Below are positions 4,424 to 34,191 of a DNA stretch of 64,000 nt, piece by piece. Position 1 is the stretch's first letter. Every line of letters begins with the position of its first letter. The notes below the pieces were generated by a model. That model saw nothing but the letters and a program-made list of their open reading frames with translations, did no database searches and was not told the origin of the DNA. Both the position numbers and the translations under genes were made by a program. Source of the stretch: Candidatus Thorarchaeota archaeon (GTDB taxonomy: Archaea > Asgardarchaeota > Thorarchaeia > Thorarchaeales > Thorarchaeaceae); NCBI GenBank assembly GCA_019057475.1, contig DXJO01000010.1, forward strand, positions 128,001 to 192,000, in the 5' to 3' direction.

Positions 4424-4486
4424 TCATAGCAGGTCGCTGACATGGAACACACCCACAATGTTTGTTTTTCCTTTTACATTCAATGT
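4424..4486 (-). repeat. Displaced remnant of pyruvate kinase 3' end (left island boundary)
   Basis: Reverse strand encodes TLNVKGKTNIVGVFHVSDLL*, versus pyk C-terminus TRNIEGKTNIVGVFHVRDLVE*. Confidence 0.85.
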
Positions 4487-4657
4487 CTATCCTTTTCATA
4501 CAATGAATTTCCTCACAAAGAAATGGAATTGACATCATCGTGAAATTCATGGGATATCTATCAATAAAGAAACTGGGAGCGGTAGAAAAGGCAGTTCATT
4601 CATGTTTTCGAAGAAGTCCCTAAGAGTTCAATTGCATGCATTTGCCATGAGATACGG

Positions 4658-5469
4658 GTGGTTGAACACATCCATCTTACAGCTGAACGGATAGCCAAGT
4701 ATGCCGCAGTCATTAGAAAGCACAAGCCACGTATTGTGGTATGCTATGCTTCATGTCTATACTTGTCTGCTGAATTCCTAAGAACTGAAAGCATAGAGAT
4801 TCCATGCCCACAGGGTGTTCAAAGCAGTGCTGAGATGCTTCATGACTGGCAACTGTCTGCAATAAGTGCACAGTTCGAGTGTCCGGTTATGACAGGTACG
4901 GATGTAGAGAGGTAGGCGACATTGTCCACGAGTGTTCAGCTCATGATGGACTACATATTTCGCAAGAACTGATGCACGTAGAAGTACTGAAGGATGGTGA
5001 ATCCACAGCCTATGGGGAAGAGGGTGATATAGTAATTACATCCTTCGCGAACTACGCTTTTCCATTCATTAGATGCCATATCGGAGATTTCGGTGTGCTC
5101 CTTGATCCCGATGATTCATGCACATGTGGAAGAAGTTTCATTAAGATGTCACCTAAGGTTGGACGAAGCACCGACATTTTTCACTTCGAAAACGGACTTA
5201 TTGTTCATGGTAAATTTTTCACCCATCTATTCTACGACGCTCTCTCAGTTCGTCAGTTTCAAGTAGTTCAGAAATCGTATTCTAAAATTGAAATTAGGAT
5301 TGTACCCTCAAACTCCCTAGATGATGTCTCAGTTGGTCCGATTACTGAGGTGACACGTCAGAGTGTAGGATTACCAATCGATGTGGACTTTGTATTCACT
5401 GACAGAATCAAACCATCTCCTACTGGGATGCATCGCTTTGCAGTTTCCGAAGTTAAGCCATTGTTATGA
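4658..5469 (+). pseudogene. Phenylacetate-CoA ligase/CapK-like adenylate-forming enzyme, 5'-truncated and frameshifted
   Basis: Two overlapping ORFs (..YASCLY..SSAEML.. and YDRYGCREVG..EC..H..G...ITSFANYAFPFIRC.IGD..GRSTD) form one CapK-type protein; the N-terminus is missing. Confidence 0.75.
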
Positions 5470-5562
5470 TCCCATTCGGGCGGCGAGTAGATAGTCATCT
5501 TTGGACATACAAATGCGGGGTCGTGCAGTATCACTCCAAATCGCCAATACTGGTTGCCAGAC

Positions 5563-7197
5563 TTAATGATTCTGTTGCAGGGGTTCATCACTTCCGGCGC
5601 TAGAATTCACAAGCGATAATACCATCCTCTCGTATTTCAAAATGGGGCCTATAGCGAGGTTTATCCCTCTCATGGCTCCTAACGCACCATCAAGAATTCT
5701 AATGTCCTGATCTCTCACTGCTCGAGTTAATGGCAACAGGGTCAAGTAGAAAAGAATGAACAATGAAAAACCTGCAATCACCGTTGCCACGTAGTGCATC
5801 TCAACCAGTTGGTTGAGCAGGAGTATCATCACTGCCGCGATGCCTGAGCTCAGATAGATTCTGCCCAAGCTCAGGAAATCATATTTCAAATGTAACTGCT
5901 GCTTGCCTTTCCAGAGTCCAACAATGCAGGCTAAGAGTGTGGATACAAAATGCGCGGCGATGAGACCTTGCCCTCCAGCTAGTGCCGTAGAAATGAATCC
6001 AAGAGGCAAGAAAGCTACCACGTAGACGACATAGAATAGCAATGTTAGGGTATTCTTCCCAACGCCGCTGAAGAAACTAGTCAAGACACCATTCCCAAGT
6101 CCTACAAGTAGGAACACGCTGGAGAAAAGGGTCAAATACATTGATGCTGTAGCATATTCGCTTCCGTACAGAAGAAGTATGATCTCTTGGGACATAATCA
6201 TGAATATGGTTGCTGCAGGAACGATTACTAACGCGACATAGCGATGAGCCATTGCGAAGGCGCGACTGATGTCGGAATCTCCTGACAATGTACTGACTCT
6301 CGAGAAAGCTGGGAGCAACGCAATAAAGAGAGGAGCGGAAACAGCTCGTAGCAAAGTGGAGATGTTTACTGCAACACTGAAGTTTCCCACATCAACATCA
6401 GAGCTGAATGCTGCCAGAAGTACAAGCCTATATTGAATGGCAAAAGCTGCGATAATGGTTACGGCGTAAAGCGGAAGACCAAAGATCATAATCAATTTCG
6501 TATAGTATGTCTTGTTTCGCCCTTTGAAATTCACTTCTCCGTATTTCTGGAGTTCCTTCGCAAGCAAAGCTATAGAAATCACTCCTGTGACAACATAGGA
6601 AAGAACGAATCCAGATATGGCTCCAAACATCTCTAGACCAATAAGTATTAAGAAAACGGACATGCCTGCTTTCATGGATGCTTGGAAGATTCTGATGAAC
6701 CCACTCCATGAGGGTTTGTCCAGGCTCTGGAGTGCAAAGAACGCCACCCAGAATAAACCCTCGAATGCAACAGCAATGCATGAGAATGCTATGTATGGAG
6801 CTAGTGATGGCCTACCAAGTACAGCTTCTGCAAACAGGCCAGACAGTAGGAATCCTGTGATAGAAACAAAGGCAACGATAAGCAGCCTTAGAAGGAGTCC
6901 CACTCTGAGGGTCCTTAGCGCTTCCTTGTCATTTCCTTCTGCACGCATCTTTGGAACATATCTGACTAGTGCGATATCTATTCCAAAGATCGAGAACGAG
7001 AATAATAGTGAGGGCAGGACAAGTGCCAGACTATACTGAGCATATAGAACTGGGCCAAGCAGTCTTCCAACTAGTATTGTGCCTATCCCGTTGACAATGG
7101 TAGCCGTAACCATACCAAGCACAAGGGAAGTTGCGCCTCTAATCGAATCCTCTGCAAGGTCGGTTAGATTCTCGTTCGTTGGATTTACCGCACTCAC
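5563..7197 (-). CDS. Polysaccharide flippase (Wzx/MOP family)
   Basis: About 14 hydrophobic segments; RLLGP..Y..YSL, G...ALVRY and LLPAFS motifs. Confidence 0.88.
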   Translation of the reverse strand: MSAVNPTNENLTDLAEDSIRGATSLVLGMVTATIVNGIGTILVGRLLGPVLYAQYSLALVLPSLLFSFSIFGIDIALVRYVPKMRAEGNDKEALRTLRVGLLLRLLIVAFVSITGFLLSGLFAEAVLGRPSLAPYIAFSCIAVAFEGLFWVAFFALQSLDKPSWSGFIRIFQASMKAGMSVFLILIGLEMFGAISGFVLSYVVTGVISIALLAKELQKYGEVNFKGRNKTYYTKLIMIFGLPLYAVTIIAAFAIQYRLVLLAAFSSDVDVGNFSVAVNISTLLRAVSAPLFIALLPAFSRVSTLSGDSDISRAFAMAHRYVALVIVPAATIFMIMSQEIILLLYGSEYATASMYLTLFSSVFLLVGLGNGVLTSFFSGVGKNTLTLLFYVVYVVAFLPLGFISTALAGGQGLIAAHFVSTLLACIVGLWKGKQQLHLKYDFLSLGRIYLSSGIAAVMILLLNQLVEMHYVATVIAGFSLFILFYLTLLPLTRAVRDQDIRILDGALGAMRGINLAIGPILKYERMVLSLVNSSAGSDEPLQQNH

Positions 7198-7420
7198 ATC
7201 TCCATTTCTAGTCTTAAGCCGCAGCTCGGTTTCTTGCTGGTTCAGCTCTCCTCCTTATTATGATTACCTCGCAAGTCAATCTAATGCTACCGAAACATAC
7301 TTCTGACAAGGAGGTGCGGAACCTGAAATGCCACTGTTCAACGGGCATGTGCAATCCTACTGAACACTCTCCATCCTCCACACAACTCAGGTTCTGTGCA
7401 AACATGACCCTGGAAAAGGG

Positions 7421-7561
7421 CTTCTGCTTCCTGAGCTACAAATTAGGGAGTATGTGATAGTGCATTTGGCCTATGCCATCGAGAAGATGAAGTCAATGGA
7501 AGCCAAGAAGACACTAGCACTCTTTGAAGAGATGGCGAAGTTCGCAGAAGAAACTGAATAG
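7421..7561 (+). pseudogene. hypC: Remnant of hydrogenase maturation chaperone HypC (C-terminal half)
   Basis: Manual translation LLLPELQIREYVIVHLAYAIEKMKSMEAKKTLALFEEM resembles HypC GDYVLVHxGxAI.K..EEEA..TL; no MCLAIP N-terminus in frame. Confidence 0.55.
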
Positions 7562-8120: not shown

Positions 8121-8621
8121 ATGCCGGACGTGTTTACGCACTTCCTAGTCGGTGTGTCAATTGCACTACTTGTGCGCAAAGACGGCAGCAGGGCAGAACG
8201 GATGCTGATAATCTTAGGTGCGGTCTTGATAGATATTGAACGCCCATTCTCATGGTTACTCGCAAGTACTGAGTTCTATTGGATTGGACTGACCCCAGCG
8301 TTTCACTCCATATTAGGGGCTGTTTTCCTCTCCTACTCTGCAGCTGCCTGTTTCGATTTGGAGCACACCACTTTCAGGGAGCGGGTCAAGCTGATTCTCA
8401 TTGGTTGCACAGTTCATCTCCTACTGGACATGACAATGTATCCCTGGGAGGAGCGTGGCCTCTATCTTCTTTATCCTCTCAAAATCACGTTTTCATTCAA
8501 TCTTCTTTGGCCAGACTTCTGGTGGCTTCCTGTGTTTGGTATAGCGAGTCTTCTTGTTGCCTTGGGCATTAGATACCTGATGACTCTCACTCAGTCAAGT
8601 AAGGCAGAACGCGATTCGTAG
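8121..8621 (+). CDS. Membrane-bound metal-dependent hydrolase (YdjM-like)
   Basis: MPD.FTH, GA.L.DI, FHSI, HLLLD and G..LLYP motifs. Confidence 0.8.
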   Translation: MPDVFTHFLVGVSIALLVRKDGSRAERMLIILGAVLIDIERPFSWLLASTEFYWIGLTPAFHSILGAVFLSYSAAACFDLEHTTFRERVKLILIGCTVHLLLDMTMYPWEERGLYLLYPLKITFSFNLLWPDFWWLPVFGIASLLVALGIRYLMTLTQSSKAERDS

Positions 8622-9214
8622 ACACTTTCTGTTTGTTAGAGGCACGGAGTCTGAAGAGGTATGGCATGATTCCAAGGGCGACCTTTCACGAAACCTCGTC
8701 ATTTGGCCTTCTGTTCTCAATGATTCTCGACTTGCCAGACCGAGATTGACCTGACAATGATGGATTCACCAGAACTCCCTTCGATAGCTATCCGGAATTC
8801 CCCATAGTAACCTCACCTATGATTATTCTGTTGATGCGGCAGTATCATACACTGTCACCAGCCGACAATGTCCGGAAACCTGTGCCCTAGTTACTGAAGA
8901 CTTCTGACTCCCATACTAACATTGCCTGAAACAGGTGTTGATGTGAAAGCAATACTCAGGCAAAAGGAGTGGGGTGGTGCGAATCTCCTTGTGCATCTCA
9001 ATGGCCCTAATCCGCTCGTCAGCTTTTCTTGCAAACATTGGCGGGCAGGGGATTCCCGAAACATGTATCCGAGCGGGCATATCAACGAACGCGCTACATG
9101 TTTGCTCCATTCCTCGTTTCTCCCACGAAGACTTAAGAGATGTGGGCATACGTAATGGGGATGCGCAAGGCCCCAGTTTCAATGAAAAATGGGGGTACCA
9201 CGGAGGTTCGTTGA

Positions 9215-10348
9215 ATGAGGGTTGCCCATATTTGTCCCTTTGTAGGAGAGCAGATGGGTGGCAGCGAAAGATATGCATGGACTCTCGCGAAGAAACAGGC
9301 GAAAGAATATGACGTTCATGTATACACGACCACTCAAAACGCTAGACGTACAGGAACCATCGAGTCAAATGGTGTGACAATCCACCGATTCTACAGCCCA
9401 ATTGTTGTGTGGAACATCAACCCAATCAGTCTGATGCTTAGGTCACTTGTAAACTCAGATATCGACCTATTTCACATTCATTCGTACCTCTACACACCCT
9501 CGAACCAAGCCGTGTTCGCCAAGATAGTCAAAAAGAAGAAGGCCCTTCTGCAGTTACACGGTGGCATTGGGCTGCCACCGTACAAGACATGCTGGGTCAA
9601 GCTTGCTGCGAAGAAGTTCTATGACGTATCTCTTGGCAAGTTCATGATGAATCATAGCGATATAATCGCATCAGTGTCCAAGTCCGACCTAGATGCAGTC
9701 GAATCCCAGTTCTCTATTCCAAAGGGCCGGCTGCGTTACGTGCCGAATGTCGTAGACACCTCTGTTTTCAAACCCGAAACGAAGCAGCACTCGAATGGAA
9801 GAACACTGCTGTATGTAGGTGATTTGGAGCCCTGGAAAGGCGTTTGTTCACTGATGGAGTGGATGCGTGCTCAGAGTCGGTGGGATGGAGGCAATATCAC
9901 AGTGCGTTTTGTGGGTCAAGGCTCGTTGCTCAGTCGCCTTCGAAAGATGCAGCGTGAGTTTCAGAAAGACAGGCAAGATGTTCGCATTGAGGTCCTGGGC
10001 CCGAAAGACCACAGTGAAATACCTACGCTCATGAGGGACGCTGATGCATTGATACTCCCCTCCTATTGGGAAGGAATGCCAACTGTTGTTCTCGAGGCCA
10101 TGGCGTCTGGAACGCTTGTAATATCGACTCGTGTCGGTAACATACCTAGAATGATTGAACATCTTGGCACGGGCTTGTTGATTGATAGATCAGCTGCCAG
10201 TTTTCAAGAAGCAGTATCCACGGTTCTCTTTGATGTGAAAGCTGTGAGGCGCATCACTGAGAATGCAAGGAAACTGGTTGAGCGGGAGTTCAGTCTTGAC
10301 AAGGCCAACCTGATTCTACATGGTCTATACTCGGAGATGCTGGAGTGA
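9215..10348 (+). CDS. Glycosyltransferase family 4
   Basis: GGSE, VPNVVD, LPSYWEGMPTVVLEAMASG. Confidence 0.92.
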   Translation: MRVAHICPFVGEQMGGSERYAWTLAKKQAKEYDVHVYTTTQNARRTGTIESNGVTIHRFYSPIVVWNINPISLMLRSLVNSDIDLFHIHSYLYTPSNQAVFAKIVKKKKALLQLHGGIGLPPYKTCWVKLAAKKFYDVSLGKFMMNHSDIIASVSKSDLDAVESQFSIPKGRLRYVPNVVDTSVFKPETKQHSNGRTLLYVGDLEPWKGVCSLMEWMRAQSRWDGGNITVRFVGQGSLLSRLRKMQREFQKDRQDVRIEVLGPKDHSEIPTLMRDADALILPSYWEGMPTVVLEAMASGTLVISTRVGNIPRMIEHLGTGLLIDRSAASFQEAVSTVLFDVKAVRRITENARKLVEREFSLDKANLILHGLYSEMLE

Positions 10349-10446
10349 GCTGCCAACCGAACGTAGTGTGAATGAACACTTGCCGTTCCAGAGTTCTCTT
10401 TCCGAATGCGCAGGGGTTGGGCATCAAGCCGTAGATTATGATGAAT

Positions 10447-11484
10447 CTAGTGAGGATGTTTACTGCTGGCTCGTTTACGGCATTTCCCTGCTATAACTCC
10501 CGTGTCCCTAACCCATTGAATTGTCAGTTTAAGACCGGCGTTGATGTCAGTCTTAGGAATGTAGCCCAAGTCCTTTTTCGCCTTCTCAATACTTGCGAGG
10601 CTATCCCGCACATCACCTAGACGAGGTTCTCGAAACGTTTTCGTGGATTTGGATTCGGTTTCCTTGATAATCCTGTCAGCAAGGCTCTCAATGGTGGTTT
10701 GTGCCCCTCCACCAACATTGTATACATTTCCTTTTGACTGACTACTCTGGGCAGCCAAAAGATTGCACTCCACTATGTCATCAATGTACGTGAAATCTCT
10801 GGTTTGCTGACCATCGCCATCAATGAACAAGGGGCGATATCTCAACGCTTGAGAGATGAAGATGGCCATTACGCCTGCGTAGCTTCCGCCTCTTTGCCTT
10901 GGGCCATACACATTGAAATATCTCAGAGCACTGATGTTCATGTCATAGGTGGCACTGAAAACGAGCGCGATGCTCTCTTCTGCCAGCTTTGATGCGGCGT
11001 ACGGTGACATCGGATTCGTGTGCATATCCTCCGTCTTTGGTAAGGTAGTCGTGTCACCATAAACGGATGACGACGATGCCACTACTACTCTATCAACGTC
11101 TGCCTTACGACATTCATCCAAAACTACAGTAGTGCCCATCACATTCACATCAGTCACCAAGTGTGGATTATCGATGGAGAATGGTACACTTACTTTTGAT
11201 GCTTGATGGAAGACTAGTGACACGTCTCGAAGCGACTTCGCTACGTCGTTTCTGTTTCTGATGTCCCCTACGATTAGCTCGAACTCCCTCTTGTTCACCC
11301 ACTGAGCTATGTTCGACATGTCACCATTGCTCAAGTCATCCAGAACGCGCACAGAGGCTCCATTGCGCATGAGGAAGTCAACAATGTGAGACCCAATGAA
11401 TCCTGCGCCTCCAGTTACAAGGATGTGTGTTTCCTCAAAGCAACTAGCATCTATTACTACATTTGTCGGTTTCAAGCCAATCAA
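10447..11484 (-). CDS. NAD-dependent epimerase/dehydratase (GalE-like)
   Basis: VTGGAGFIGSH, ASSSSVYG, YAASK, LRYFNVYGPRQ, GDGQQTRDF. Confidence 0.92.
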   Translation of the reverse strand: MIGLKPTNVVIDASCFEETHILVTGGAGFIGSHIVDFLMRNGASVRVLDDLSNGDMSNIAQWVNKREFELIVGDIRNRNDVAKSLRDVSLVFHQASKVSVPFSIDNPHLVTDVNVMGTTVVLDECRKADVDRVVVASSSSVYGDTTTLPKTEDMHTNPMSPYAASKLAEESIALVFSATYDMNISALRYFNVYGPRQRGGSYAGVMAIFISQALRYRPLFIDGDGQQTRDFTYIDDIVECNLLAAQSSQSKGNVYNVGGGAQTTIESLADRIIKETESKSTKTFREPRLGDVRDSLASIEKAKKDLGYIPKTDINAGLKLTIQWVRDTGVIAGKCRKRASSKHPH

Positions 11485-11705
11485 TCCCCGTATCTAGCTC
11501 CTCCATTGACTTGGTCTTTATCCCTGACAGAAACCTAGTCGAATTCCCCATCTTTACTCACAGGCAAATCGTTATACATAGGTAACTTGAAGGATATCCC
11601 AAATGGGAGCAGATACTTAGGTCGAGGTCGATGACCCGCTTGCTAATAACGGTGTCTGGTCTACAATATCTTTCATCAAGGGAATAGTAGGTTTCAAGGA
11701 TAATT

Positions 11706-12858
11706 GTGTTGAGGGACATGTTCATGAAGGTCCTAATCACCCCACAGTGCTTCCCTCCTGATATGGGGGACGGGGCAACAAGAGCACACAGTGTCGCAGT
11801 GGGTCTTGTCAGGGCTGGATGTGAAGTCACCGTAGTTTCTGCAGCTCCACACTATCCAAGTGGAAACATTCCCATGAAGTATCGTTGGAATCCCTTGCGT
11901 ATCGAGTACGATAGTGAGATGAAAATCATCAGGGCTTTCGTCCCGCCAGTGGAATCAAGAGGATTCGCAAAGCGGGCAGTACTCTTCCTGTCATTTGTCC
12001 TCTCTTCGCTCTTTGCCATTCCCTTGGTCGGAACGGCTGATGTGGTCTTCGCAGCGAATCCTAACATCACAGTCATGTTTGCAGGATTGATCTACAGGAA
12101 TCTCAGCCGTTGTCCGCTTGTGCAGAATGTTGACAATCTCTGGCCTGAGGTTCTGTATGACTTGGGTGTAAGGCGAGGTTCGTTCATAGGTAGATTGGAC
12201 TAGTTGATGGCTAGGCTCGCGTATGGTTTGGCCTATGCCATAACATCGATTAGTCCCGCTTATGTTCATGTAATCAGAAGCAAATACGATATTGATTCGG
12301 GCAAAATACTCGTTGTGAAGGCTGGAGTATCTCATTCATGGGTTCTCGATGTTGAGAGAAACGGGAATCTCTGTCAATCTTGCTGTTGTTGGCTCACCTT
12401 CGCTGAATCAAATGGACTGTACGAAACGTATTCAGAAGCCTGTCATAGAACTTGACGTCGAGAATGACATGATTTTCACTGGACGAGTTGAGAACTCTTT
12501 GCTCCCCGGAGTTCTTAGTCAATTCGATGTGTTTGTGCATCCATCCAAGAGCGAAGGCACTCCAGTGAGCATTCTTGAGGCTATGGCCATGGAACTGCCG
12601 GTCGTGGCGACCGATGTGGGCGGGATTTCGGAACTCGTGGTGGATGGTGAAACTGGAATCATTGTTGAACCGATGAACTCTCCCTCAATCGCTTCAGCAA
12701 TCGCCTTTCTCTTGCAGAACCCTGCAGAGCGCACGAGAATGGGGCGGAGCGGCAGACAGAGAGTACTGGATTTATTCACCCGTGACAAGACAGTGACCGG
12801 ATACACTGAGGTCTATCACGAAACTGTGCGGAAACACCAGCACAGCAATCAAAACTAA
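11706..12858 (+). pseudogene. Disrupted GT4: WbuB-like N-terminus with in-frame TAG at 12201-12203, then frameshift/deletion into a GT4 C-terminus
   Basis: FPPDMG.GA.R, P.YP.G, LWPE in 11706-12203; the frame continues after the stop; PSKSEGTPVSILEAMA in 12349-12858. Confidence 0.78.
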
Positions 12859-12991
12859 TACTATACATCAATTTAAGGCGTTATGATAGGAATTAGGCTA
12901 AGGATGTGAGCCGAAATTTCAAAGGCACACCAGAGATATCGGGCTGTACATTCACTCAAGGTTTGTTAGCCCTTCATGAGAATAGAAGGAG

Positions 12992-14152
12992 ATGTTCCAC
13001 ACGCAGCGCAGGATTCGTATCTGTATTGTCGCCTTGTGTCCTGGACTCACTCCGATATCGGACCTCATTATGATCATGTCTAGGATTGCCCATGAGGTAT
13101 ACTTGGTCATTCCTGGGCTCCCGCGCAACATATTGCCGAATCTTTCCAACGTCAAGCATTTGACCGTTCCTCACAGAGTATCCTCTGGGCTCGTTTCGAG
13201 ACTGATGAATAGCATAATCACGCAATTTAGGGTGCTTCTTCAGGTCATGAAGATATCCAAGTCTGTAGACCTATACCTCTTCTCAATCAGTGGAGAAACA
13301 TTTCTTCTACCCTTGCTGGGTTTGAAATTCATGAGGCAATTAACGGCCTTCATGCCCGGGGGGAATGCAATAAGAGTTTCCAAGATTAATAACGATTTGC
13401 TTTCACTTCTTATCCCCTCTGTGGTTTATGCCGCTCTTGAATTGACACACCGTATCATTCTCTATTCATCGCATATGGCAAAGGAAGCGGTTTTCGCGAA
13501 ACACAAGAATAAGACGATATTCGCTCACAAGCACTTCATCAATTTCACTCGCTTTATGAGAGAGTATGACCTTTCCGAGAGACCAGAAACAGTTGGATTC
13601 ATCGGGCGCCTAAGCAGAGAGAAGGGAGTACTGAGCTTTGTTGACGCCATACCACAGGTACTTGACATAAGAGAATCTGTGAAGTTCCTGATTTGTGGCG
13701 ACGGATTATTGCTTGAGGAGGCTAAGATGCGCGTTGCGAAACGAGGGCTTGAATCATCTGTCAGGTTCACCGGGTGGGTATTTCGTCAACAGATTCCAGA
13801 CTTATTGAATTCTATGAAGTTGATGGTTCAACCGAGCCTAACCGAAGGGTTACCCAATAGCATCCTTGAGGCGATGGCCTGCGGAACGCCTGTTCTCGCT
13901 ACACCCGTCGGTGGCATTCCTGATCTGATTGTGGAGTCTGAAACCGGATTTTTCCTTCGTTCCAGGAATCCCGACCATATCGCGGAGAGAATCTGTTCGC
14001 TTCTTGGCAACACGGAACTGCTGGAGAATGTGAGCAATCGCGCCATGGACTTCGTTAATCAAGGCTTCTGCTTCTCGTATGTAGTTCAGAGTTGGCACAA
14101 CGTCCTTGCTCAGCTGGGTTTGAGAAACACTAAATCCCAAGGTGCTGAATAG
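12992..14152 (+). CDS. Glycosyltransferase family 4
   Basis: GFIGRLSREKG, PSLTEGLPNSILEAMACG. Confidence 0.9.
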   Translation: MFHTQRRIRICIVALCPGLTPISDLIMIMSRIAHEVYLVIPGLPRNILPNLSNVKHLTVPHRVSSGLVSRLMNSIITQFRVLLQVMKISKSVDLYLFSISGETFLLPLLGLKFMRQLTAFMPGGNAIRVSKINNDLLSLLIPSVVYAALELTHRIILYSSHMAKEAVFAKHKNKTIFAHKHFINFTRFMREYDLSERPETVGFIGRLSREKGVLSFVDAIPQVLDIRESVKFLICGDGLLLEEAKMRVAKRGLESSVRFTGWVFRQQIPDLLNSMKLMVQPSLTEGLPNSILEAMACGTPVLATPVGGIPDLIVESETGFFLRSRNPDHIAERICSLLGNTELLENVSNRAMDFVNQGFCFSYVVQSWHNVLAQLGLRNTKSQGAE

Positions 14153-14235
14153 CCTACTCAGCTCTGGATGTTCCTACCCTTTTCAACACTACGATTCTGC
14201 TCGCCAAACACAACTCTGGAGATCGGCCCGAGAAT

Positions 14236-14577
14236 GTCGGAAAACTCCTTGCGGCCAAGAATGCTCAGAAGGATCCAGACTTCATGGTGATTGCTAGAGT
14301 AGAAGCCCTCATCGCAGGATGAGGCATGGATGAAGATCTCACTAGGTTTCGCGAGTATGAACGAGCTGGGGCTGACACAATACTAATCCACCACAAGGAC
14401 TCAGACCCTTCCCCCATTCCGAAACTCATCAAGAAATGGAATGGTGGAGAGCCGCTTGTTCTTGTGCCAACCAAGTATCCATCATTCAACGAGAATCAGA
14501 TGAAATGGTCAGGAAGGGTGGGGATGGTAATCTATGCTAACCGTAGCATCAATCATTCCAGTTCCAGGCGGAATTGA
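14236..14577 (+). pseudogene. pepM: Phosphoenolpyruvate mutase remnant (phosphonate biosynthesis)
   Basis: In frame: VGKLLAAKNAQKDPDFMVIARVEALIAG*GMDE.L.R..EY..AGADTILIH...W....PLVLVPTKY...VGMVIYAN, matching the PEP mutase C-terminal half; TGA at 14320-14322 replaces the usual Trp. Confidence 0.8.
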
Positions 14578-14649
14578 AAACAGCATGCAAATATGAGCCA
14601 CAAGTAGATGGTATCCAAGTGGATATGTCAGTGCAGTTGAATCATATGG

Positions 14650-20972: not shown

Positions 20973-20981
20973 GTTTCAAAC

Positions 20982-22307: not shown

Positions 22308-22330
22308 TAGATTTGTTCCTCCGGATTAGT

Positions 22331-26593: not shown

Positions 26594-26749
26594 TAGCTAT
26601 TTCAACCAATGTTTTCTCAAGACAATGGCCAGCTTATGCAGCCCTTCAGAGTCAGTCCCAGTTACAGAATCCATCAGTCTTGGCAATATGACTACGTGGC
26701 TTTTCCCCAGGTTATTAAGATTCTGTTTCCAAGCTGCAACTATACGATT

Positions 26750-27156
26750 CTAACAGTCTAGAAGTCGCACCAATAACTCAATCCAGATTACTAGTACCTT
26801 TGCAAAGTCAAAGCAGCTGGCCACATATTGGAGTGCATTGCCTGCAATTCGTTTCAGGGAATGGGGATCATCCAGTAGTTGGATGATACGATTGGAGCGC
26901 ATCGGAGGATCATTCGATTCAAGGATGAGCCCATTATGGCTGTTCTCAATGATTTCAGTCACTGACCCGACACCTGATATCAAGACACGTGTGCCGCACG
27001 CCATTGCTTCAAGCATTACATCAGGCAGTCCTTCAGTATAGGAGGGGAGTACAAATAGTCTTCCTCGTCGTAAAGACTCTCGCGCAGGTTTTTGATTACC
27101 TTACCCCGCACCCTTTTTTCATTGTACGCTGGGATTGCGACAATCAACCTGGACAA
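26750..27156 (-). pseudogene. Chimeric scar: GT2 N-terminal fragment fused to GT4 C-terminal fragment
   Basis: From 27156 downward encodes LSRLIVAIPAYNEKR (GT2 start); ~27060-26750 encodes LFVLPSYTEGLPDVMLEAMACG (GT4 end) in another frame. Confidence 0.75.
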
Positions 27157-27222
27157 GGGGACTCCACACTCTCCTTTCTTGATGAGCAGTGGATACTATG
27201 GCACATAAATGTGCTTGGTCTG

Positions 27223-27351
27223 CTTTGCGTCGGGTTCCCTGCGAGCTTGTAGTTCCGGTGTCCTATAATCTTGGATAGGCTCTACAACTCAGCTTCTATG
27301 CCTGATGAGCCTAGAAAGAATAGTTTCCAACTTGTCGCCGATACACTTGAG
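27223..27351. repeat. Direct repeat copy 2
   Basis: Matches 17652-17780. Confidence 0.92.
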
Positions 27352-28548
27352 TGAAAGGTGACTTTCCACATATCTTTTCCCCTTCATTCCCATAAGCTTG
27401 CCAACTGACGGGGTTTGCTCTAGTCCATCAATGAAATCAAACGCCCGTTCAATCCGGTTTTGACTAACCGAAAGTCCACACTCTGCTATTTCAACCAGCT
27501 GCGCAGGCTGACCTTTTCCAAGAACAAGAACTGGTCGTTCGAAGGCCATGAAATCGAGTAATTTGGAAGGTATTGCGGTAGTGGAGATGAAATTGTCTTT
27601 CATAGGTAGTATGAACACTGTTGCTGTTTTCATGAAACTTGCGTATTCCTCATTAGTCATGTGCTTTCGGAGCACCTGTACATTGGAGAGGTTCCTAGCC
27701 TTAATCCCTCTTCTAAGAAGATTTGTCGTCATGCCAAGCCCTTTCACTATGAATGTCCAGTTCTTGTTTCTTTCTTGTGCCAGCTTTGCAATGTTCAGAA
27801 TCAGGTTGAAGTCGTATGCAGGTCCAAGTGCACCAGCATAGATGATTCGGATTGTATCATTGGTTGGAATTGCTACCTCATCATCAAATCTACGAAACCT
27901 GCTATAGTCGAAGCCTACCTCGATTGTCTTAATTCGATCTTGAGGAATCCCATTTCTTATCAAGTATCGCGTGATTGCACCAGCTATGGGAATAACGTAA
28001 TCTGACATCTTCAGCATCGCGTTCCTTACAGCGGCCAACCCGCGAAGCATCAGATTATTCTGCACTATTCCTAGATCAGCAAGAGCTTCTGGCCAGAGGT
28101 CATCCACATTCATTATCAACGGAGTCCTCTTGCACATCTTATAGAGGAGTCCCAAAGGATACACAAAGAAGTTTGGGCTCATGGCCATGACCAAGTCGCT
28201 CTCCCCCACCAATGGGAGGACTAGTAGGCTCGCGAGCATGAAATAGAGATAGTTTGCCATCCTACCGGCAGTGCTGTGATGGCTCATAGGCGGCATCCAC
28301 AATCTGATGACAGTAAGTCTTCCCTTGGTCTGGAACTGATACATTTTTCGATTGCACAAGGCTCTATTATTCCCATCTGGATAATGTGGCACGCCTGTCA
28401 CTAGTACAACTTCATAACCACGACTCAGCATATCTTTCACGATGTGAAACGTTCTCATTCCAGAACCTGCTATATCTGGTGGGAAATACTGTGATATGAG
28501 GCAGACTCTTTTGATGCCCTTTGACTCGTTATTAACCATCACAATCAC
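27289..28548 (-). CDS. Glycosyltransferase family 4 (WbuB-like)
   Basis: SQYFPPD, VPHYPDG, DLWPE, YAGALG, PSKLLDFMA. Confidence 0.9.
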   Translation of the reverse strand: MIVMVNNESKGIKRVCLISQYFPPDIAGSGMRTFHIVKDMLSRGYEVVLVTGVPHYPDGNNRALCNRKMYQFQTKGRLTVIRLWMPPMSHHSTAGRMANYLYFMLASLLVLPLVGESDLVMAMSPNFFVYPLGLLYKMCKRTPLIMNVDDLWPEALADLGIVQNNLMLRGLAAVRNAMLKMSDYVIPIAGAITRYLIRNGIPQDRIKTIEVGFDYSRFRRFDDEVAIPTNDTIRIIYAGALGPAYDFNLILNIAKLAQERNKNWTFIVKGLGMTTNLLRRGIKARNLSNVQVLRKHMTNEEYASFMKTATVFILPMKDNFISTTAIPSKLLDFMAFERPVLVLGKGQPAQLVEIAECGLSVSQNRIERAFDFIDGLEQTPSVGKLMGMKGKRYVESHLSLKCIGDKLETILSRLIRHRS

Positions 28549-28590
28549 CGAAACTCCTACCAGTTCCCATCGGCATGCCTCTTGTGATTT

Positions 28591-30333
28591 CTACCCCTTT
28601 TTCGTTAATAGATAATCTCCTATTGCGAGATGGTCCAGTTCACTCTCCAAAAACGTTTCAACCGCTACTTCTGGTGATCCAACAATCGGATAGCCGTGAA
28701 GGTTGAAAGATGTGTTCAAAACGACAGGGACACCAGTGATTTCAGCGAACTTCTGGATCATTGAATACCACCCAGAGTTATGGCTTCTGGCAACAGATTG
28801 AGGACGCCCAGTGTAGTCATATGGGTGCAGTGCAGCAGGGATTTCTACACCTCTTTCTGTCGTTGGAAATGCTTCTATCATATATCTTGCAGGTCGTGCG
28901 TTCACAAAGTACTCTGCCATTCTATCTTCAAGTATTGATGGTGCAAAGGGCATCCAGAAGTCCCTGTACTTTATCGCGAAGTTTATCCTCCTGACCACTC
29001 TCAAATCCCTCGGATCCGCGACTATGCTGCGATTTCCCAGAGATCTGGGTCCAAACTCTTCTCGCCCTGAGAATCTCGCAACAATCATGCCATCTGCCGC
29101 TTTTTCAGCAATGCATGTTTCGAGATCATCGCGGAATTCATATTCGAGTTTTTCGTCATACTTCGCGATTACAGACATGACTCTGTCATTGTCGAATTGC
29201 CGACCTAGGTACAGGTCCTCTAGAGGAACCCGCTTGGGTTTCACTCCGTCAAGCTTGCAGAGATGATAGTATCCCATCAATGCACCTCCGATTGGAGTCC
29301 CGCCATCATCACAAGCAGGATGGAAGAAAACATCTTCAACCTCGGGAAGGTTTCTGATGAGACTGTTCGCTTTTACATTCAGGAAACTGCCTCCAGCTGT
29401 CACAATTTTGTTTATTCCCGTTTCTTCTATTGCGTTTTTCACCCACTGAATCACTAGTTCTTCGAACCGTTCTTGACATGCAGCCGTAATATTGTCAAAC
29501 CTCTCACCTGCAAACATCTTACGCAGTTTTCCTTGTGAGTTCTTCCCGTAGGGACCGAGTATGTTCCTGAATCTAAGCGGATGTTCTGAATCCAAAGTGC
29601 AGATTCGTCGCATCTTGTCAATGCAGTATTGAGATCGTCCATAAGGAGCCATCCCCATAACCTTGTACTCATGCTCCCACCGTTTGAGTCCGAGGAATCC
29701 AGTTATCTCGCTATACATGTTGTTGCTTATGCTATCATAATATGTTGACCAATCTACTCGCTCGATATCATACCCTGTCCCAATGCTCACAGTCGAGCTG
29801 ACACCATCTCCTGCACCATCCAGAGTGAGAATAAGTGTGTCCTGATCCCAAGGTCTTTGATAGTAAGCTGTGGCGGCATGTGCTAAATGATGTTCTATGA
29901 ACGTACACTCAACATCGCTTATACCCATCTCTGCAAGGCATCTATCAATCTCTTTCAGAGTGCGGAAGCGATGAAGTATCCTCACATATGTTCTGGCGAA
30001 CCACCTTGAATGAAGAATCCTAGACACAGATCTGAACATCTTCACTCTGAGGCTGTCTTCTTCCACAAGTGGTGCTGTTGATCGCACAAGGCCCACAATC
30101 GAAACTAAGTTAGTGTCGACTGGATTAATCCCTGCGATTCTGTACACCTCTCCAATTGCCAGTACAGGTGGACCGCTGAAATTCTTGATGTTTCGCATCC
30201 GTTCCTCACTGACAGCTGCGACAATTCTTCCGTCGCGAAGCAACGCAGCCCCAGCCCCATGCCCATCATGAATTCCTAGAATAACATACCTTTTTGCCAT
30301 CGTTTCCTTCCACAATGCGAGCATTTTGTCCAT
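28591..30333 (-). CDS. Carbamoyltransferase (NodU/CmcH family)
   Basis: ILGIHDGH, EER, EHHLAHA, DGAGD, EYKVMGMAPYG, GG..LNVKAN, EFGPRSLGNRSI, NTSFNLHG.PIV. Confidence 0.93.
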   Translation of the reverse strand: MDKMLALWKETMAKRYVILGIHDGHGAGAALLRDGRIVAAVSEERMRNIKNFSGPPVLAIGEVYRIAGINPVDTNLVSIVGLVRSTAPLVEEDSLRVKMFRSVSRILHSRWFARTYVRILHRFRTLKEIDRCLAEMGISDVECTFIEHHLAHAATAYYQRPWDQDTLILTLDGAGDGVSSTVSIGTGYDIERVDWSTYYDSISNNMYSEITGFLGLKRWEHEYKVMGMAPYGRSQYCIDKMRRICTLDSEHPLRFRNILGPYGKNSQGKLRKMFAGERFDNITAACQERFEELVIQWVKNAIEETGINKIVTAGGSFLNVKANSLIRNLPEVEDVFFHPACDDGGTPIGGALMGYYHLCKLDGVKPKRVPLEDLYLGRQFDNDRVMSVIAKYDEKLEYEFRDDLETCIAEKAADGMIVARFSGREEFGPRSLGNRSIVADPRDLRVVRRINFAIKYRDFWMPFAPSILEDRMAEYFVNARPARYMIEAFPTTERGVEIPAALHPYDYTGRPQSVARSHNSGWYSMIQKFAEITGVPVVLNTSFNLHGYPIVGSPEVAVETFLESELDHLAIGDYLLTKKG

Positions 30334-30590
30334 CTCATAAGCTTTGCGTCATCCGTGGCTCTGCTGCAGGACTCGTAGATTGACTCATAGGAAGATATGG
30401 ACTCTTCATGCATAAGAGAACTCCGAGGCCCATTTGTTTACATGTCTTGCTGAGCACTGATTCCCGCTGAGAGTTTATTATAAGGAGCGAATACAAAGAG
30501 TGACATTGAATACAGCACTCAATTCGGATCATATGCGGTGCCGAAAGAAACATCTGGGGGGAAACATCTGGATTGAACGGGGCTAAGCGG

Positions 30591-31682
30591 ATGACCAAAG
30601 TTGCATTAATTACAGGGATTACCGGGCAAGATGGATCGTATTTGGCAGAATGTCTCTTGAGCCTAGGCTATGAGGTCCATGGAATGATACGCAAGGCAAG
30701 TACATTCAACACAGCTAGAATCGACCATCTGTACAAGGATCCTCACGATCCAGAGGCGAAACTTTTTCTTCACTATGGCGACATCACGGATTCCGCTAGC
30801 GTCACTCGAATTCTTGAAGATGTCGAGCCAGATGAAGCGTATAACTTGGCAGCTCAGAGCCATGTTAGGGTGAGCTTTGACATGCCGGTCTATACGGGAC
30901 AGGTCTCCGGAATCGGCACAGCCTGCATGCTAGAGTCGATACGAAAGAGCGACATAAACACAAGATTCTATCAGGCGTCGTCCTCCGAGATGTTTGGTTT
31001 CTCTCCCCCTCCTCAGAATGAGCAAACACGCTTTCACCCGCGAAGTCCATATGCCGCAGCGAAGATCTATGCCTACTGGATTACGGTGAACTACAGAGAA
31101 GCCTATGGATTACATGCTTCCAATGGAATACTGTTCAACCATGAATCTCCTCGACGTGGAGAAACTTTCGTCACTCGGAAGATAACTCGTGCGGTAGCGC
31201 GTATAGTGGCTGGCACTCAGGACAAGCTCTACCTCGGGAACTTGAAAGCCAAGCGTGACTGGGGCTACGCTCCAGAGTACGTGGTCGGAATGGTTCACAT
31301 TCTGAAGCATAATACGCCTGACGACTTCGTCTTGGGCACAGGAACTAGCAATTCCGTTGAAGAGTTCTTACGTTTCTCCTTTGAATATGTTGGACTAGAC
31401 TGGAACGATTATGTTGAAATCGATTCTAGATACCTGCGACCTGCTGAAGTCGAGAATCTTCAAGCTGACCCATCGAAAGCACGTAGCACAATTGGATGGA
31501 ACCCCAAGGTTCTTGCTCCAGAACTAGCGAAGGTGATGATTGATTGCGATATGTTCAGGTGCGGCCTCAAACCACCTGATGAAGGACGCGAGATCTTGAC
31601 TCGCTGTGGTTTGGATTGGGTCGTTGAGCCTATCAAGGAATTCACTGGACAGGAAGTTACAACATGGAGAAATCCGACCTGA
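30591..31682 (+). CDS. gmd: GDP-mannose 4,6-dehydratase
   Basis: [46 protein letters not shown]. Confidence 0.96.
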
Positions 31683-32608
31683 TTTATGTTGCAGGGCATG
31701 CTGGACTTGTGGGGTCCGCTATTGTCAGGAGTTTGAATCAGAGTGGGTTTCATAACCTACTCCTTAGAACGCATGCGGAGCTTGACCTCACTTGTCAACA
31801 TGCCGTTGAGAAGCTATTCCAGGAGTACAGACCAGACTATGTTTTTTTGGCTGCTGCAAAGGTGGGTGGCATCCTTGCCAATTGGGAACGTTCTGCGGAA
31901 TTTATCTATGAGAATCTGATGATTCAGAACAACGTGATTCACCAAAGCTATGTTTCTGGAGTCAAGAAACTTCTTTTCCTTGGAAGCTCGTGCATCTATC
32001 CGAAGTTCGCAAATCAACCAATATCTGAGGATGAGCTTCTTTCAGGGAAACTCGAACCGACGAATGAACCGTATGCAATTGCCAAGATCGCAGGAATCAA
32101 GCTTTGCGATAGCTACCGGCGGCAGTATCAGGCCAACTTCATATCTGCCATGCCAACCAACTTGTATGGACCTAACGACAATTTCGATTTGGAAACGTCG
32201 CATGTGCTTCCGGCCCTCATGCGCAAGATTCACGACGCAAAGGTCAATGAAGACGACACGGTAGTAGTATGGGGCTCAGGACAGCCAAGAAGAGAGTTCC
32301 TATACATCGACGACTTAGCAGACGCTCTGCTATTCCTAATGGGGAACTACTCATCTGAGGGTCCTATAAACGTCGGCTGTGGCTTAGATATCTCAATACT
32401 TGAGCTGACTCATCTTCTTATGGAGGTGATTAGCTATCAGGGATTGATTGAGTTCGACCAATCGAAGCCAGATGGCACACCTAGAAAGATGCTCGACACC
32501 ACAAAGCTCGATAAGATTGGATGGCGACCGAAAGTGTCACTGAAAGAGGGGATTGAGCTGACATACAACTGGTTCCTAGACAACGTAGCAAAACACTTTG
32601 GCCAATGA
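31664..32608 (+). CDS. fcl: GDP-L-fucose synthase
   Basis: [47 protein letters not shown]. Confidence 0.96.
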
Positions 32609-32647
32609 ATGCACTTCAGGCGGCGATAGCCCATCCCTTTTCTTCAG

Positions 32648-32731
32648 TCAATGGTGGCTGTGTTCTGGTAGGATGTTTCGCGTGTGGAACACACCTACAA
32701 TGTTCGTTATTCCTTTAATGTTCCTAGTGCC
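32648..32731 (-). repeat. Second displaced remnant of pyruvate kinase 3' end (right island boundary)
   Basis: Encodes GTRNIKGITNIVGVFHTRNILPEHSHH*, versus pyk GTRNIEGKTNIVGVFHVRDLVE*. Confidence 0.85.
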
Positions 32732-32763
32732 AAAAAAGCGATATCCCTAACTGCCTGTCACCC

Positions 32764-34191
32764 TTACTCTACCAAGTCCCGAACATGGAATACGCCCACG
32801 ATGTTTGTCTTCCCCTCGATATTTCTAGTGCCGGACGTGAAGACGATGTCCTTGTCCTTTGATATCAATCCCTGAGCATAAACCGCACGGACCGATTCCC
32901 GCACCTGATCGTCCACGTACTCAATGTGCTTTCCATAGTGAACCGGATGAACTCCCCACAGAAGCCGAAGCCGCCTCATGACCCTTGGATCCAGTGTCAC
33001 CGCGTAGATATGGACTGGTGGACGGAACTTCGAAACCCACCTTGCTGTGAATCCCGACCTCGTCGCAGTGATGACGCCATCCACTTGGTCCGGAATCAAC
33101 GATACCGCGTTGTAGACAAGATTGCCAATGATTTCAACAATCATTCTCTTAGGCGACGTAATCTCAGCGGGATTCACGAGGGGCAATCGCGGTTCCACCC
33201 GCTTGATGATTCGGTTCATCATCTCCACGGCCGCGACCGGGTCAACACCGACGGCGGTTTCCCCGCTTAGCATGACTGCATCCGCCCAATCGAACACCGC
33301 ATTGGCCACATCGCTGACCTCCGCCCGCGTAGGCACTCTCTCGTGGGTCATCGACTCAAGCATATGAGTGGCGACAATCGCCGGTTTCGCCCAAGTATTC
33401 GCCTCACGTATCAGGTCCCTCTGGAGAATGGGTACGTCCTCGATTGGCACCTCAATGCCGAGGTCACCGCGAGCAATCATCACCCCATCCGAGTGCTCCA
33501 GAATTGCATGGTAGTTCTCGACCGCCAACTTGTGCTCTATCTTGCTTATCAACCCCGCATCGCTCGGACCATTGGACTTCAGGATGTTTCTTACGTTGAT
33601 AACGTCCCTGTGGTCAATGACAAAGGATAGAGCCACGAAATCCGGCTCAAGTTTCGCAGCCAAGTCAAGGTCCCTGCAGTCCTGTTCGGTCGGCACTCTA
33701 CAGGACAGCTCAATTCCCGGGATGTTCACGCCCTTTCGAGTTGATATCACTCCTCCGTGAATGACCTCCGTGACCACCTCGTCGCCCTGAATATACTTCA
33801 CCTGCAGTCTAACGATTCCATCATTGATTGCAATCATATCGCCTGGTTGAACGTCGTTGGGCAGCTCCTTGTGCGAGATTGAGACGCGCTTCTCATCTCC
33901 GATGAAGTCCTCGATTGATATGGTGAATTCCTGGCCACTCTCCAATTCCACCGGGGTTCTTAGTTCACCAATCCTAATCTTCGGGCCTTGAATATCAAAC
34001 ATGATTGGGATGGAGTCGTCCACAGAACGAATGGTCTTGAACGTCTTCTTAGCGGACGGATGGTCTTCGTGCGAGAGGTTGATTCTCGCGACATCCATTC
34101 CTGCTTCTACCATCTTGGCCAGCGTTTTTTTCGACCTAGACGCAGGGCCGATTGTGCAGACGATCTTGGTTCGAGTCTTATCGAATATCAA
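32764..34191 (-). CDS. pyk: Pyruvate kinase
   Basis: TKIVCTIGPAS, GPKIR, SKIE, MIARGDLG, PTRAEVSDVANA, MLSGETA; probable TTG start at 34191 after GGAG. Confidence 0.96.
   Translation of the reverse strand: MIFDKTRTKIVCTIGPASRSKKTLAKMVEAGMDVARINLSHEDHPSAKKTFKTIRSVDDSIPIMFDIQGPKIRIGELRTPVELESGQEFTISIEDFIGDEKRVSISHKELPNDVQPGDMIAINDGIVRLQVKYIQGDEVVTEVIHGGVISTRKGVNIPGIELSCRVPTEQDCRDLDLAAKLEPDFVALSFVIDHRDVINVRNILKSNGPSDAGLISKIEHKLAVENYHAILEHSDGVMIARGDLGIEVPIEDVPILQRDLIREANTWAKPAIVATHMLESMTHERVPTRAEVSDVANAVFDWADAVMLSGETAVGVDPVAAVEMMNRIIKRVEPRLPLVNPAEITSPKRMIVEIIGNLVYNAVSLIPDQVDGVITATRSGFTARWVSKFRPPVHIYAVTLDPRVMRRLRLLWGVHPVHYGKHIEYVDDQVRESVRAVYAQGLISKDKDIVFTSGTRNIEGKTNIVGVFHVRDLVE

Follow-up and report, generated by a model that had tools for sequence, protein, structure and literature searches.

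Truncated pyruvate kinase gene ends in a variable surface-glycan region of a Thorarchaeota archaeon: probable scars of imprecise recombination

How does the 3' end of a glycolytic gene come to be present three times on one strand, with a block of surface-glycan genes lying between the copies? The question is raised by a metagenome-assembled genome (MAG) of a Thorarchaeota archaeon, of which we analysed a stretch of 64,000 nucleotides (hereafter the window) belonging to a 472-kb contig, C42. A membrane-linked recombination operon was also noted on this contig. Within the window the last 18-30 codons of pyk, the pyruvate kinase gene, occur as three minus-strand copies. A first-pass annotation had viewed the 28 kb adjoining pyk as a single island integrated at the 3' end of this gene, and pyk itself as a recurrent boundary for surface-glycan cassettes.

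The intact pyk gene (32764..34263, minus strand) specifies a protein of 499 aa with Pfam PF00224 (PK) and PF02887 (PK_C) domains and a C-terminus reading ...GTRNIEGKTNIVGVFHVRDLVE*; its orthologues in 17 relatives share 63-95% amino acid identity. The 22 final codons (32764-32832, minus strand) were taken as the reference copy of the tail. The near copy is a 5'-truncated remnant (32648..32750, minus strand, with its stop at 32648-32650) which starts approximately 15-33 nt downstream of the intact stop and reads GTRNIKGITNIVGVFHTRNILPEHSHH*. Homology is clear over 32669-32731, and a probable upstream extension of ca. 8 codons to ~32750 (K-D-I-x-F, with a 4-nt gap) brings the remnant within 15 nt of the intact pyk stop. 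It is convergent with fcl, the spacer between them being 39 nt. The far remnant (4424..4486, minus strand), 28 kb from intact pyk, consists of 18 clear codons plus a stop and reads NVKGKTNIVGVFHVSDLL* (4427-4480, stop 4424-4426). The reported gap of 10 nt between this remnant and the stop (4413) of a convergent nucleotidyltransferase gene is borne out. The positions of all three copies are agreed upon by the translations, by tblastn with the last 60 pyk residues as query (both window remnants at E = 2.9e-6), and by an independent repeat search, which returned a three-copy family at 4443-4481, 32685-32723 and 32786-32824 (85% and 74% identity). A whole-genome DNA search with the pyk tail gave no copy beyond these three. 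The common start at G-T-R-N ascribed to both remnants holds approximately, but the near one is probably the ~8 codons longer and the far one is clear only from N481. Across the family the residues beyond the FHVxDL motif of pyk vary in length and sequence. An 11-nt match, GGCACTAGGAA, lying 30 nt past the pyk stop of genome G017 was considered as a shared core and rejected as chance, the sequence beyond it not being pyk-like.

Identity of the remnants to the intact tail is 65-74%, with exact runs in common of 8-11 nt at the longest. As had been claimed, the copies differ largely at synonymous sites: pS is 0.85 and pN 0.18 for the intact and near tails (Fisher p 3e-6), and 0.78 and 0.10 for the intact and far tails (Fisher p 9e-6). 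Since the differences are mainly synonymous, the copies once served as working pyk ends in other lineages; with synonymous sites near saturation and few replacement changes, their sequences mark both remnants as foreign.

The region between the remnants is not a single unit, as had been proposed, but a composite which contains a second kind of scar and a 24.2-kb segment that appears to be a later insertion, all within a variable region of ~47 kb. Beyond the far remnant lie two accessory genes recognized by Pfam, a UDP-glucose dehydrogenase (2087-3415, plus strand) and the sugar-phosphate nucleotidyltransferase (3445-4413, plus strand), with orthologues in just 1-2 of the 12 family genomes searched. 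An ancestral adjacency of nucleotidyltransferase and pyk had been suggested; it was absent from all genomes searched, the closest homologues (P0002 and P0003) lying outside that search. Of these two, P0002, at 92%, is on a 24-kb contig. From the far pyk remnant to the second scar (4487..7423) there are two unannotated ORFs (4658-4915 and 4879-5469; no matches in Pfam or PHROGs) and a Wzx-like flippase (5563-7197, minus strand; Pfam Polysacc_synt). The second scar is the 3' half of hypC (7424..7561, plus strand), corresponding to HypC residues 31-75 of 77 aa (tblastn E = 6.6e-15, 64% aa identity). Against the intact gene it shows pS 0.79 and pN 0.22 (p = 2e-8). Intact hypC, the left-flank gene, is located ~36 kb leftward, at about window positions -28705 to -28472. 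The similar nucleotide identities of the two remnants (66% for hypC, 65% for the near pyk copy) were considered as a sign of a single donor, but the comparison is uninformative because the synonymous sites are saturated.

To the right of the hypC scar a 166-aa membrane protein (7619-8119, plus strand) and a YdjM-family protein (8121-8621, plus strand) are followed by the 24.2-kb glycan cassette (8594..32647; Pfam assignments). It includes five GT4 glycosyltransferases, one of them split at 11706-12858, a PEP-mutase relic (14326-14577), a glycosyltransferase fragment (26753-27100), an epimerase, DUF362, a second flippase, an FrhB-like protein, a pyruvyl transferase, a 1420-aa LamG membrane protein, a carbamoyltransferase, gmd and fcl. 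The second flippase and the FrhB-like, pyruvyl transferase and LamG proteins form a 9.4-kb sub-cassette (17645..27351) which the repeat search found to be bracketed by direct repeats of 136 nt with 89% identity (17645-17780 and 27216-27351). Beyond pyk the conserved right flank continues with enolase (eno, 34382-35689, plus strand) and the archaeal phosphoglycerate mutase (apgM, 35693-36934, plus strand), both identified with Pfam. The G+C content is modestly low (46.6% vs 48.3%, 8th percentile), with 46.8% in the 24.2-kb cassette vs 49.7-49.9% in the flanks, and tetranucleotide composition is unexceptional, in keeping with related donors. Composition was discarded as a proof that the DNA is foreign, since so modest a dip with ordinary tetranucleotides neither proves nor excludes transfer from relatives.

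Is this arrangement peculiar to one genome? All of the genomes compared are MAGs, and some of their contigs may be mis-binned. The pyk-eno-apgM flank is conserved across the family while the glycan genes 3' of pyk differ. The eno-apgM flank is syntenic in G009, G014, G011 and others, and the same slot, with pyk-eno-apgM on one side and a conserved block on the other, is found in G014 and G011. At least 10 genera carry glycan genes 3' of pyk, and the conserved slot holds differing content in G009, G014, G011, G012, G013, G015, G018 and others. The glycosyltransferases, epimerases and flippases of the relatives have 20-60% identity to those of the island, or no counterpart there. The variable glycan content predicted downstream of pyk in related MAGs is thus found. 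In five congeners the right flank is kept at 90-93% nucleotide identity (92% in G004) and the island DNA has no nucleotide match, the assemblies of these congeners being incomplete. Relative to congener G006 the nucleotide identity of pyk is 89-96% over the first 1100 nt and then falls to 87, 85, 85 and 81% toward the 3' end, despite which the protein identity stays at 95%.

A metagenome contig from a close relative, L122, bears on the right-hand junction. Here the pair encoding the 166-aa membrane protein and YdjM directly faces pyk; the contig matches window positions 7721-8593 (87.6%) and 32768-32971 (86%) with 122 nt between the matches, and 8594-32767 of the window is extra relative to it. 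The junctions could be located 15 nt past the pyk stop, at 8593/8594 and at ~4486. No third pyk remnant was seen at the YdjM-side junction (8594-9240). A pyk gene facing fcl occurs natively in G058:C159.

Extra pyk tails also turn up elsewhere in the order, in at least two MAGs (G038 and G069) that belong to two other genera. All tails, in the window, G038:C299 and G069:C136, are oriented like the intact gene. A further G038 contig, G038:C311, is possibly mis-binned; its remnant resembles the pyk of genus g1. Together with the differing glycan genes of relatives, the absence of island matches from the five incomplete congeners and the YdjM-facing pyk of L122, these tails support the idea of pyk as a recurrent boundary, or hotspot, for surface-glycan cassettes.

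We consider it probable that the locus is a glycan island of the replacement type which has grown as related archaea recombined imprecisely, with homology as the anchor. This view is based upon the foreign tails with their varied breakpoints, the failure to find recombinase genes on the contig, the conserved slot of differing content, the comparisons with L122 and the congeners, the scars of both flank genes, the other gene scraps and the repeat-bracketed sub-cassette. A hypervariable surface-glycan region of ~47 kb fills a conserved Thorarchaeia slot, limited on the left by the conserved block starting after hypC and on the right by pyk-eno-apgM, and the stretch described here is its pyk-proximal part. 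Related archaea may swap glycan cassettes by recombination in which the conserved flank genes serve as homology, most exchanges being presumably clean swaps. In an occasional event one end would be homologous and the other illegitimate or misaligned, as in homology-facilitated illegitimate recombination; such a one-sided event would add DNA and leave a 5'-truncated flank-gene tail, the donor's or the displaced resident's, as a scar. At least two additions appear to have been stacked at the pyk edge of this genome. The older may have left the far tail joined to the nucleotidyltransferase gene, and the later would have brought 8594-32750, that is, the 24-kb cassette with a donor pyk tail facing fcl. 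From the opposite flank, the hypC remnant at 7424 would be an equivalent scar. The recombination pathway, the direction and the order of events are those suggested by the arrangement of the sequences. One feature counts against this explanation: the first remnant follows the intact stop at a distance of just 15-95 nt, in the window as in G038. Such proximity is unexpected for random illegitimate joins and might point to some more specific mechanism.

A rival explanation is site-specific integration, in which an attP carrying a replacement pyk 3' end inserts repeatedly to give a tandem array, the integrase having been lost or being encoded elsewhere. The geometry is the classic one: behind an intact gene lie displaced 3' tails that point the same way. 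In the window the starts of the two remnants are ~3-10 codons apart, and this closeness, to within a few codons, also counts against the explanation that we prefer. The genome-wide profile search returned eight tyrosine recombinase matches on other contigs, and these could act in trans. The 472-kb contig itself has zero matches to PF00589 (tyrosine recombinase) or PF16795, confirming on a larger scale the earlier statement that the window is without an integrase. No mobile-element family was found in the island (Pfam on large and gap ORFs, PHROGs on unannotated ORFs), nor any tRNA gene or Rfam family in the window, and the cargo is purely glycan genes. An identical core repeat was not found at the junctions, where old age could have erased one, and the runs in common do not exceed the 8-11 nt given above. 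Across G038, G069 and the window the remnants start at residues 273, 361, 396, 419, 454, ~468 and ~479, those of the other genomes spanning 273-454; this scatter argues against a fixed att site. Known att cores are short, far below the 226 codons of one remnant. The hypC scar within the same island likewise speaks against integration. An integrative element with its att in the pyk 3' end, as envisaged by the first-pass annotation, is accordingly unlikely, since recombinase and identical core are wanting and the remnant starts vary.

Replacement of the core-gene allele is to be rated as similarly unlikely. A fragment of a relative's eno-pyk would have entered by homologous exchange on its right and an illegitimate one inside the resident pyk, leaving the old tail behind the new pyk and the glycan genes unmoved. 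The near remnant (15-33 nt) and the long G038 remnant, 95 nt past its intact pyk stop, lie directly behind the intact gene, as expected of a recombination tract that stops where homology ends, and the intact pyk of G038 carries an abnormal tail of 13 residues. On the other hand, L122 has an intact-type pyk tail (86-89%) and YdjM but neither cassette nor near remnant, which is better fitted by joint arrival of the two. The far remnant, 28 kb off, is left unexplained, and allele replacement may fit the near remnant only.

An artefact of assembly or binning, in which strain variants of the pyk end were joined into one contig, is very improbable. The genome is a MAG, and hypervariable islands often break assemblies, as at the contigs of G006 and L122, which end just past pyk or within ~1 kb of it. 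Against this, exact runs common to the copies are ≤11 nt, through which we judge a graph assembler unable to join; no more than ~100 nt separate the near copy from the intact tail; like structures occur in G038 and G069; and C42, 472 kb long, is syntenic with G014 on both sides. Least credible, and strongly disfavoured, is tandem duplication of the pyk 3' end in place with the extra copies decaying afterwards. Although the near copy has the orientation of the intact tail and lies ~100 nt from it, decay should strike both site classes alike (pN/pS is 0.12-0.22, at a nearly saturated pS), 28 kb separate the far copy from pyk, and the long G038 remnant is no nearer to its own pyk (67%) than to those of other genera (65-66%).

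The preferred reading, a replacement-type island with one-sided additions, may be compared with several known systems. In 2014 Lopez-Perez, Martin-Cuadrado and Rodriguez-Valera described flexible genomic islands of the replacement type that encode surface glycans (PMC4033161), with elevated divergence of a bordering gene as a boundary signature (PMC4033161); the cell-wall island of Haloquadratum walsbyi is an example (PMC4535781). As in those islands there is a fixed slot between conserved genes which holds different gene sets of equivalent function, a raised divergence of the border gene, and no integrase or tRNA. Unlike them, this island contains truncated foreign tails of both flank genes, cassettes have been added and not just swapped, and the host is an Asgard archaeon. 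Our literature search found no paper describing such a glycan island in an Asgard archaeon. Bacterial O-antigen and capsule loci also sit between conserved flanks, such as galF-gnd and dexB-aliA. They resemble the present locus in serotype-style exchange via flanking housekeeping genes, which become unusually polymorphic; the differences are the archaeal host, the pyk and hypC flanks, and the stacking of cassettes with flank-gene scars. Integrative elements form tandem arrays at the 3' ends of tRNA, tmRNA and some protein genes, where intact target, displaced partial 3' copies in direct orientation and intervening foreign DNA recur; here integrase, identical att core and fixed crossover point were all looked for and none was found. 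The orphan immunity arrays of the Vibrio cholerae T6SS have been ascribed to homology-facilitated illegitimate recombination (PMC5361080, in which Rhs C-terminal displacement is cited). In common with these are a conserved anchor followed by same-orientation displaced 3' pieces with foreign cargo between them, growth at the anchor-proximal end and freedom from integrases. In those arrays a polymorphic toxin gene serves as anchor, and what is displaced are variable toxin ends together with immunity genes, maybe still used, whereas the present locus is anchored on a glycolytic housekeeping gene, its scars being tails of conserved sequence with no evident use and its cargo a set of glycan genes that measures tens of kilobases.

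Asgard archaea have been cultured barely or not at all and, to our knowledge, their cell-surface chemistry and modes of gene exchange are largely unknown. The locus offers sequence-level evidence for quick turnover of surface-glycan gene sets between related Thorarchaeia, at a defined slot and through recombination anchored in housekeeping genes, without a recognisable mobile element. As a rather doubtful extension, Thorarchaeia and perhaps Asgard archaea generally might habitually add foreign DNA at core-gene 3' ends without an integrase; inter-core intervals of diverged relatives, captured by flank-tail pairing and stacked beside the resident gene with foreign tails left as scars, could reflect a dedicated route of DNA exchange and recombination, to which the recombination operon on C42 might belong. 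The flank-gene scars themselves are rare direct footprints of imprecise recombination, of a kind whose absence has been reported for replacement-island boundaries in bacteria (PMC4033161). They ease the finding and typing of the hypC-pyk slot in metagenomes, by primers or read recruitment, and such typing would let one ask whether glycan diversity tracks virus pressure.

The full-length pyruvate kinase gene (pyk, with PK barrel and C-terminal domain) occupies 32764-34263 on the minus strand of the window, which comprises bases 128001-192000 of a 472-kb contig; divergent from it lies enolase (eno, 34382-35689), followed by the archaeal phosphoglycerate mutase (apgM, 35693-36934). The source genome (3.34 Mb, 96% complete), like every genome in this study, relatives included, is a MAG. 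The final 22 codons of the intact pyk gene read GTRNIEGKTNIVGVFHVRDLVE*. As the first-pass annotation had noticed, its tail occurs twice more on the minus strand, as a near remnant at 32648-32731 (GTRNIKGITNIVGVFHTRNILPEHSHH) and a far remnant at 4424-4480 (NVKGKTNIVGVFHVSDLL). Both were recovered by tblastn with the last 60 pyk residues (E = 2.9e-6 each), and an unguided repeat search returned the same three-copy family. A DNA search of the whole genome found no pyk-tail copies beyond these three, and the longest exact run common to them is at most 11 nt. In the DNA alignment, similarity of the near remnant probably runs some 8 codons further upstream, over a 4-nt gap, so that only 15 nt would separate it from the intact stop. 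Comparison of the stops confirmed that the far remnant ends 10 nt from the stop of the convergent sugar-phosphate nucleotidyltransferase gene (3445-4413).

The copies were also said to differ largely at synonymous sites, and Nei-Gojobori counts agree. Between the intact and near tails 13.3 of 15.7 synonymous and 8.7 of 47.3 replacement sites have changed (Fisher p 3e-6); between the intact and far tails the values are 10.0 of 12.8 and 4.0 of 41.2 (p 9e-6). A dead copy decaying in place is expected to change alike at synonymous and replacement sites, and this excess of synonymous change speaks strongly against decayed in-place duplicates of the pyk end. Since synonymous changes far exceed replacement changes, unlike in-place decay, the counts indicate that the tails diverged as working pyk ends of separate lineages and were brought together afterwards. 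All three tails retain TNIVGVFH, the motif found in the window's own genus; the donors were therefore fairly close relatives.

Such tails are found elsewhere in the order. The C-terminal 230 pyk residues were used to search 87 genomes, of which 54 matched. In G038 (which is also G031) the intact pyk has, 95 nt behind it, a 226-codon remnant that spans residues 273-498 and is interrupted by a stop and frameshifts; a scrap of residues 361-390 and then an epimerase come next. On a second contig of G038 a remnant of residues 419-499 with stops lies between a methyltransferase and an epimerase. G069 carries tails of residues 396-499 and 454-499 on either side of a UDP-sugar dehydrogenase, amid sulfotransferase, GT2 and methyltransferase genes. 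The long G038 remnant shows about 67% identity to every pyk, its own included, and those of G069 show 84-85% to the pyk of their own genome; the second-contig remnant of G038 is nearest to the window's genus (77-82%, versus 56% to its own pyk), reflecting either inter-genus transfer or mis-binning. With remnants starting at residues 273, 361, 396, 419, 454, ~468 and ~479, the alignments point to no common crossover site. Extra matches in G058, G048, G016 and G034 were not counted, being contig-edge pieces or frameshifted or split assemblies. At 1460-1560 of the G038 contig C299 the intact pyk extends 13 codons beyond its usual end, with the tail PKHPRKKLRRKGG, and only then does the long remnant begin; the native stop codon appears to have been lost at the junction.

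The arrangement pyk-eno-apgM is conserved among the relatives, and glycan genes lie downstream of pyk in nearly every genus, different in each. Compared gene by gene with G014, G009 and G011, the left conserved block ends at about window position -14000 and the right block starts at pyk; the variable region measures ~47 kb in the source genome and ~50 kb in G014. Left of the far remnant, the nucleotidyltransferase and a UDP-glucose dehydrogenase have orthologues in only 1-2 of 12 family genomes, and in none of the twelve beside pyk. On this distribution both are accessory genes, which places the far remnant inside the variable region and not at its edge. A 92% homologue of the nucleotidyltransferase is carried on a 24-kb contig.

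The right flank (32764-52000) is matched at 90-93% nucleotide identity in five other species of the genus. In the same five MAGs, which are 67-92% complete, 12800-32763 was without a nucleotide match (not found, as distinct from absent) and the sole match to 1-12800 was weak (65%). The metagenome scan gave few close relatives. One of its contigs, Ga0114919_10270027 (1.2 kb), shows 86% identity to the 3' end of pyk and 87.6% to window 7721-8593; the latter segment encodes a 166-aa membrane protein beside one of the YdjM family, and the two matches lie only 122 nt apart. Both the variable glycan content and the near-direct adjacency anticipated for relatives downstream of pyk were thus observed. 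Relative to this contig's genome, window 8594-32767 (24.2 kb) is an insertion, with the near remnant at its pyk-proximal end, facing fcl. In another relative (G058:C159) the native pyk itself faces fcl, with gmd and a carbamoyltransferase next in line (61-69% identity). Most simply, the near remnant would be a stump of the donor's pyk, brought in together with the 24.2-kb cassette. A live alternative for its origin is that pyk itself was replaced from the right side. In two genomes the first remnant begins only 15-95 nt past the intact stop, a closeness that random joining fails to explain.

In the congener G004 (C152:1-14874) eno-apgM is 92% identical and homology to the window breaks off precisely where pyk starts (34258); left of eno are PIN-domain, AAA_14/DUF4143 ATPase, AbiEi-like and helicase-like genes in place of pyk. 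Because other genes lie there and no pyk was found in this MAG (84% complete), it would seem that the variable zone can swallow pyk itself.

Divergence within pyk rises toward the island: against G006 the first 1100 nt show 89-96% identity, followed by 87, 85, 85 and 81%, while the proteins are 95% identical overall. In this respect pyk resembles the bordering genes of replacement genomic islands, in which raised divergence is a reported boundary signature (PMC4033161). After the conserved FHVxDL motif, pyk ends vary across the family by 0-22 residues of unrelated sequence, and the extreme end is therefore already part of the exchanged DNA. At about 50 Thorarchaeia loci these residues fall into recurring types, e.g. 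QQPKARY and DTRILFG, which may mark allele classes tied to particular downstream cassettes. In the GC comparison proposed earlier the 28-kb stretch was modestly low at 46.6% (genome 48.3%, flanks 49.7-49.9%), in the 8th percentile among 28-kb windows, but its tetranucleotide profile is unremarkable, with 22% of windows equally or more distant. This composition fits donors among related archaea.

The island holds further debris. A 3'-half hypC remnant (7424-7558; 64% identity to residues 31-75 of intact HypC, tblastn E = 6.6e-15) differs from the intact gene (about -28705 to -28472) with pS 0.79 and pN 0.22 (p = 2e-8), the same foreign signature as that of the pyk tails; it may have arrived with the YdjM pair or before. 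Also present are a split GT4 gene (11706-12858), a GT tail (26753-27100), an internal epimerase scrap (17505-17666) and an 83-aa C-terminal relic of PEP phosphomutase (14326-14577; Pfam E = 1.1e-7), which suggests an earlier phosphonate-glycan module. Direct repeats of 136 nt with 89% identity (17645-17780 and 27216-27351) bracket a 9.4-kb module encoding a flippase, an FrhB-like protein, a pyruvyl transferase and a 1420-aa membrane protein; the module could be a unit of exchange inside the island. The sole Pfam match of the 1420-aa protein (22331-26593) is a LamG-type lectin domain, making it a candidate glycan polymerase or ligase in which one part binds carbohydrate. The region as a whole is a mosaic produced by repeated imprecise joins. 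A ~190-nt repeat family (copies 81-93% identical) occurs a dozen or more times in the genome, at window ~45034-45224, at 221590-221781 of the same contig, on at least 10 other contigs and just upstream of hypC (window -28950 to -28760; contig 99050-99240), and many times in G001, G004, G005 and G006. Rfam has no family for the window copy; the repeat could represent either a MITE-like element or an RNA not yet described.

These data fit a replacement-type glycan island with occasional one-sided exchanges. In such an exchange homologous pairing would take place in the flank gene and an illegitimate or misaligned join at the other end, adding DNA and leaving a truncated flank-gene tail behind. 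The same logic has been proposed for the orphan arrays beside T6SS and Rhs genes (PMC5361080). At least two additions would have taken place at the pyk edge, the older marked by the far remnant and the later one being 8594-32750.

The first-pass annotation had proposed pyk as a repeatedly used integration or replacement hotspot for surface-glycan cassettes, pointing to integrative elements that target gene 3' ends. The hotspot is supported by recurrent tails in the order and variable glycan genes; the integrative elements are not, with no recombinase found on the contig and the remnant starts being varied. The absence of an integrase extends from the window to the entire 472-kb contig, on which tyrosine recombinase and archaeal integrase families had zero matches; the genome's eight recombinase matches are all on other contigs. 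No tRNA genes or Rfam families were matched in the window. The large island ORFs are all glycan-pathway or membrane proteins or lack a match, and its gap and unannotated ORFs gave no mobile-element or viral family. None of the three defining features of integrase-mediated integration that were tested was found, which makes this route the less likely one.

Exchange of glycan islands by recombination at conserved flanks is a well-known phenomenon in bacteria and has been reported in Haloquadratum (PMC4033161, PMC4535781). For Asgard archaea, the literature searched gave no account either of an island of this kind or of tail scars from flank genes. The locus matters mainly as direct evidence of recombination-driven surface-glycan turnover in the Asgard archaea.
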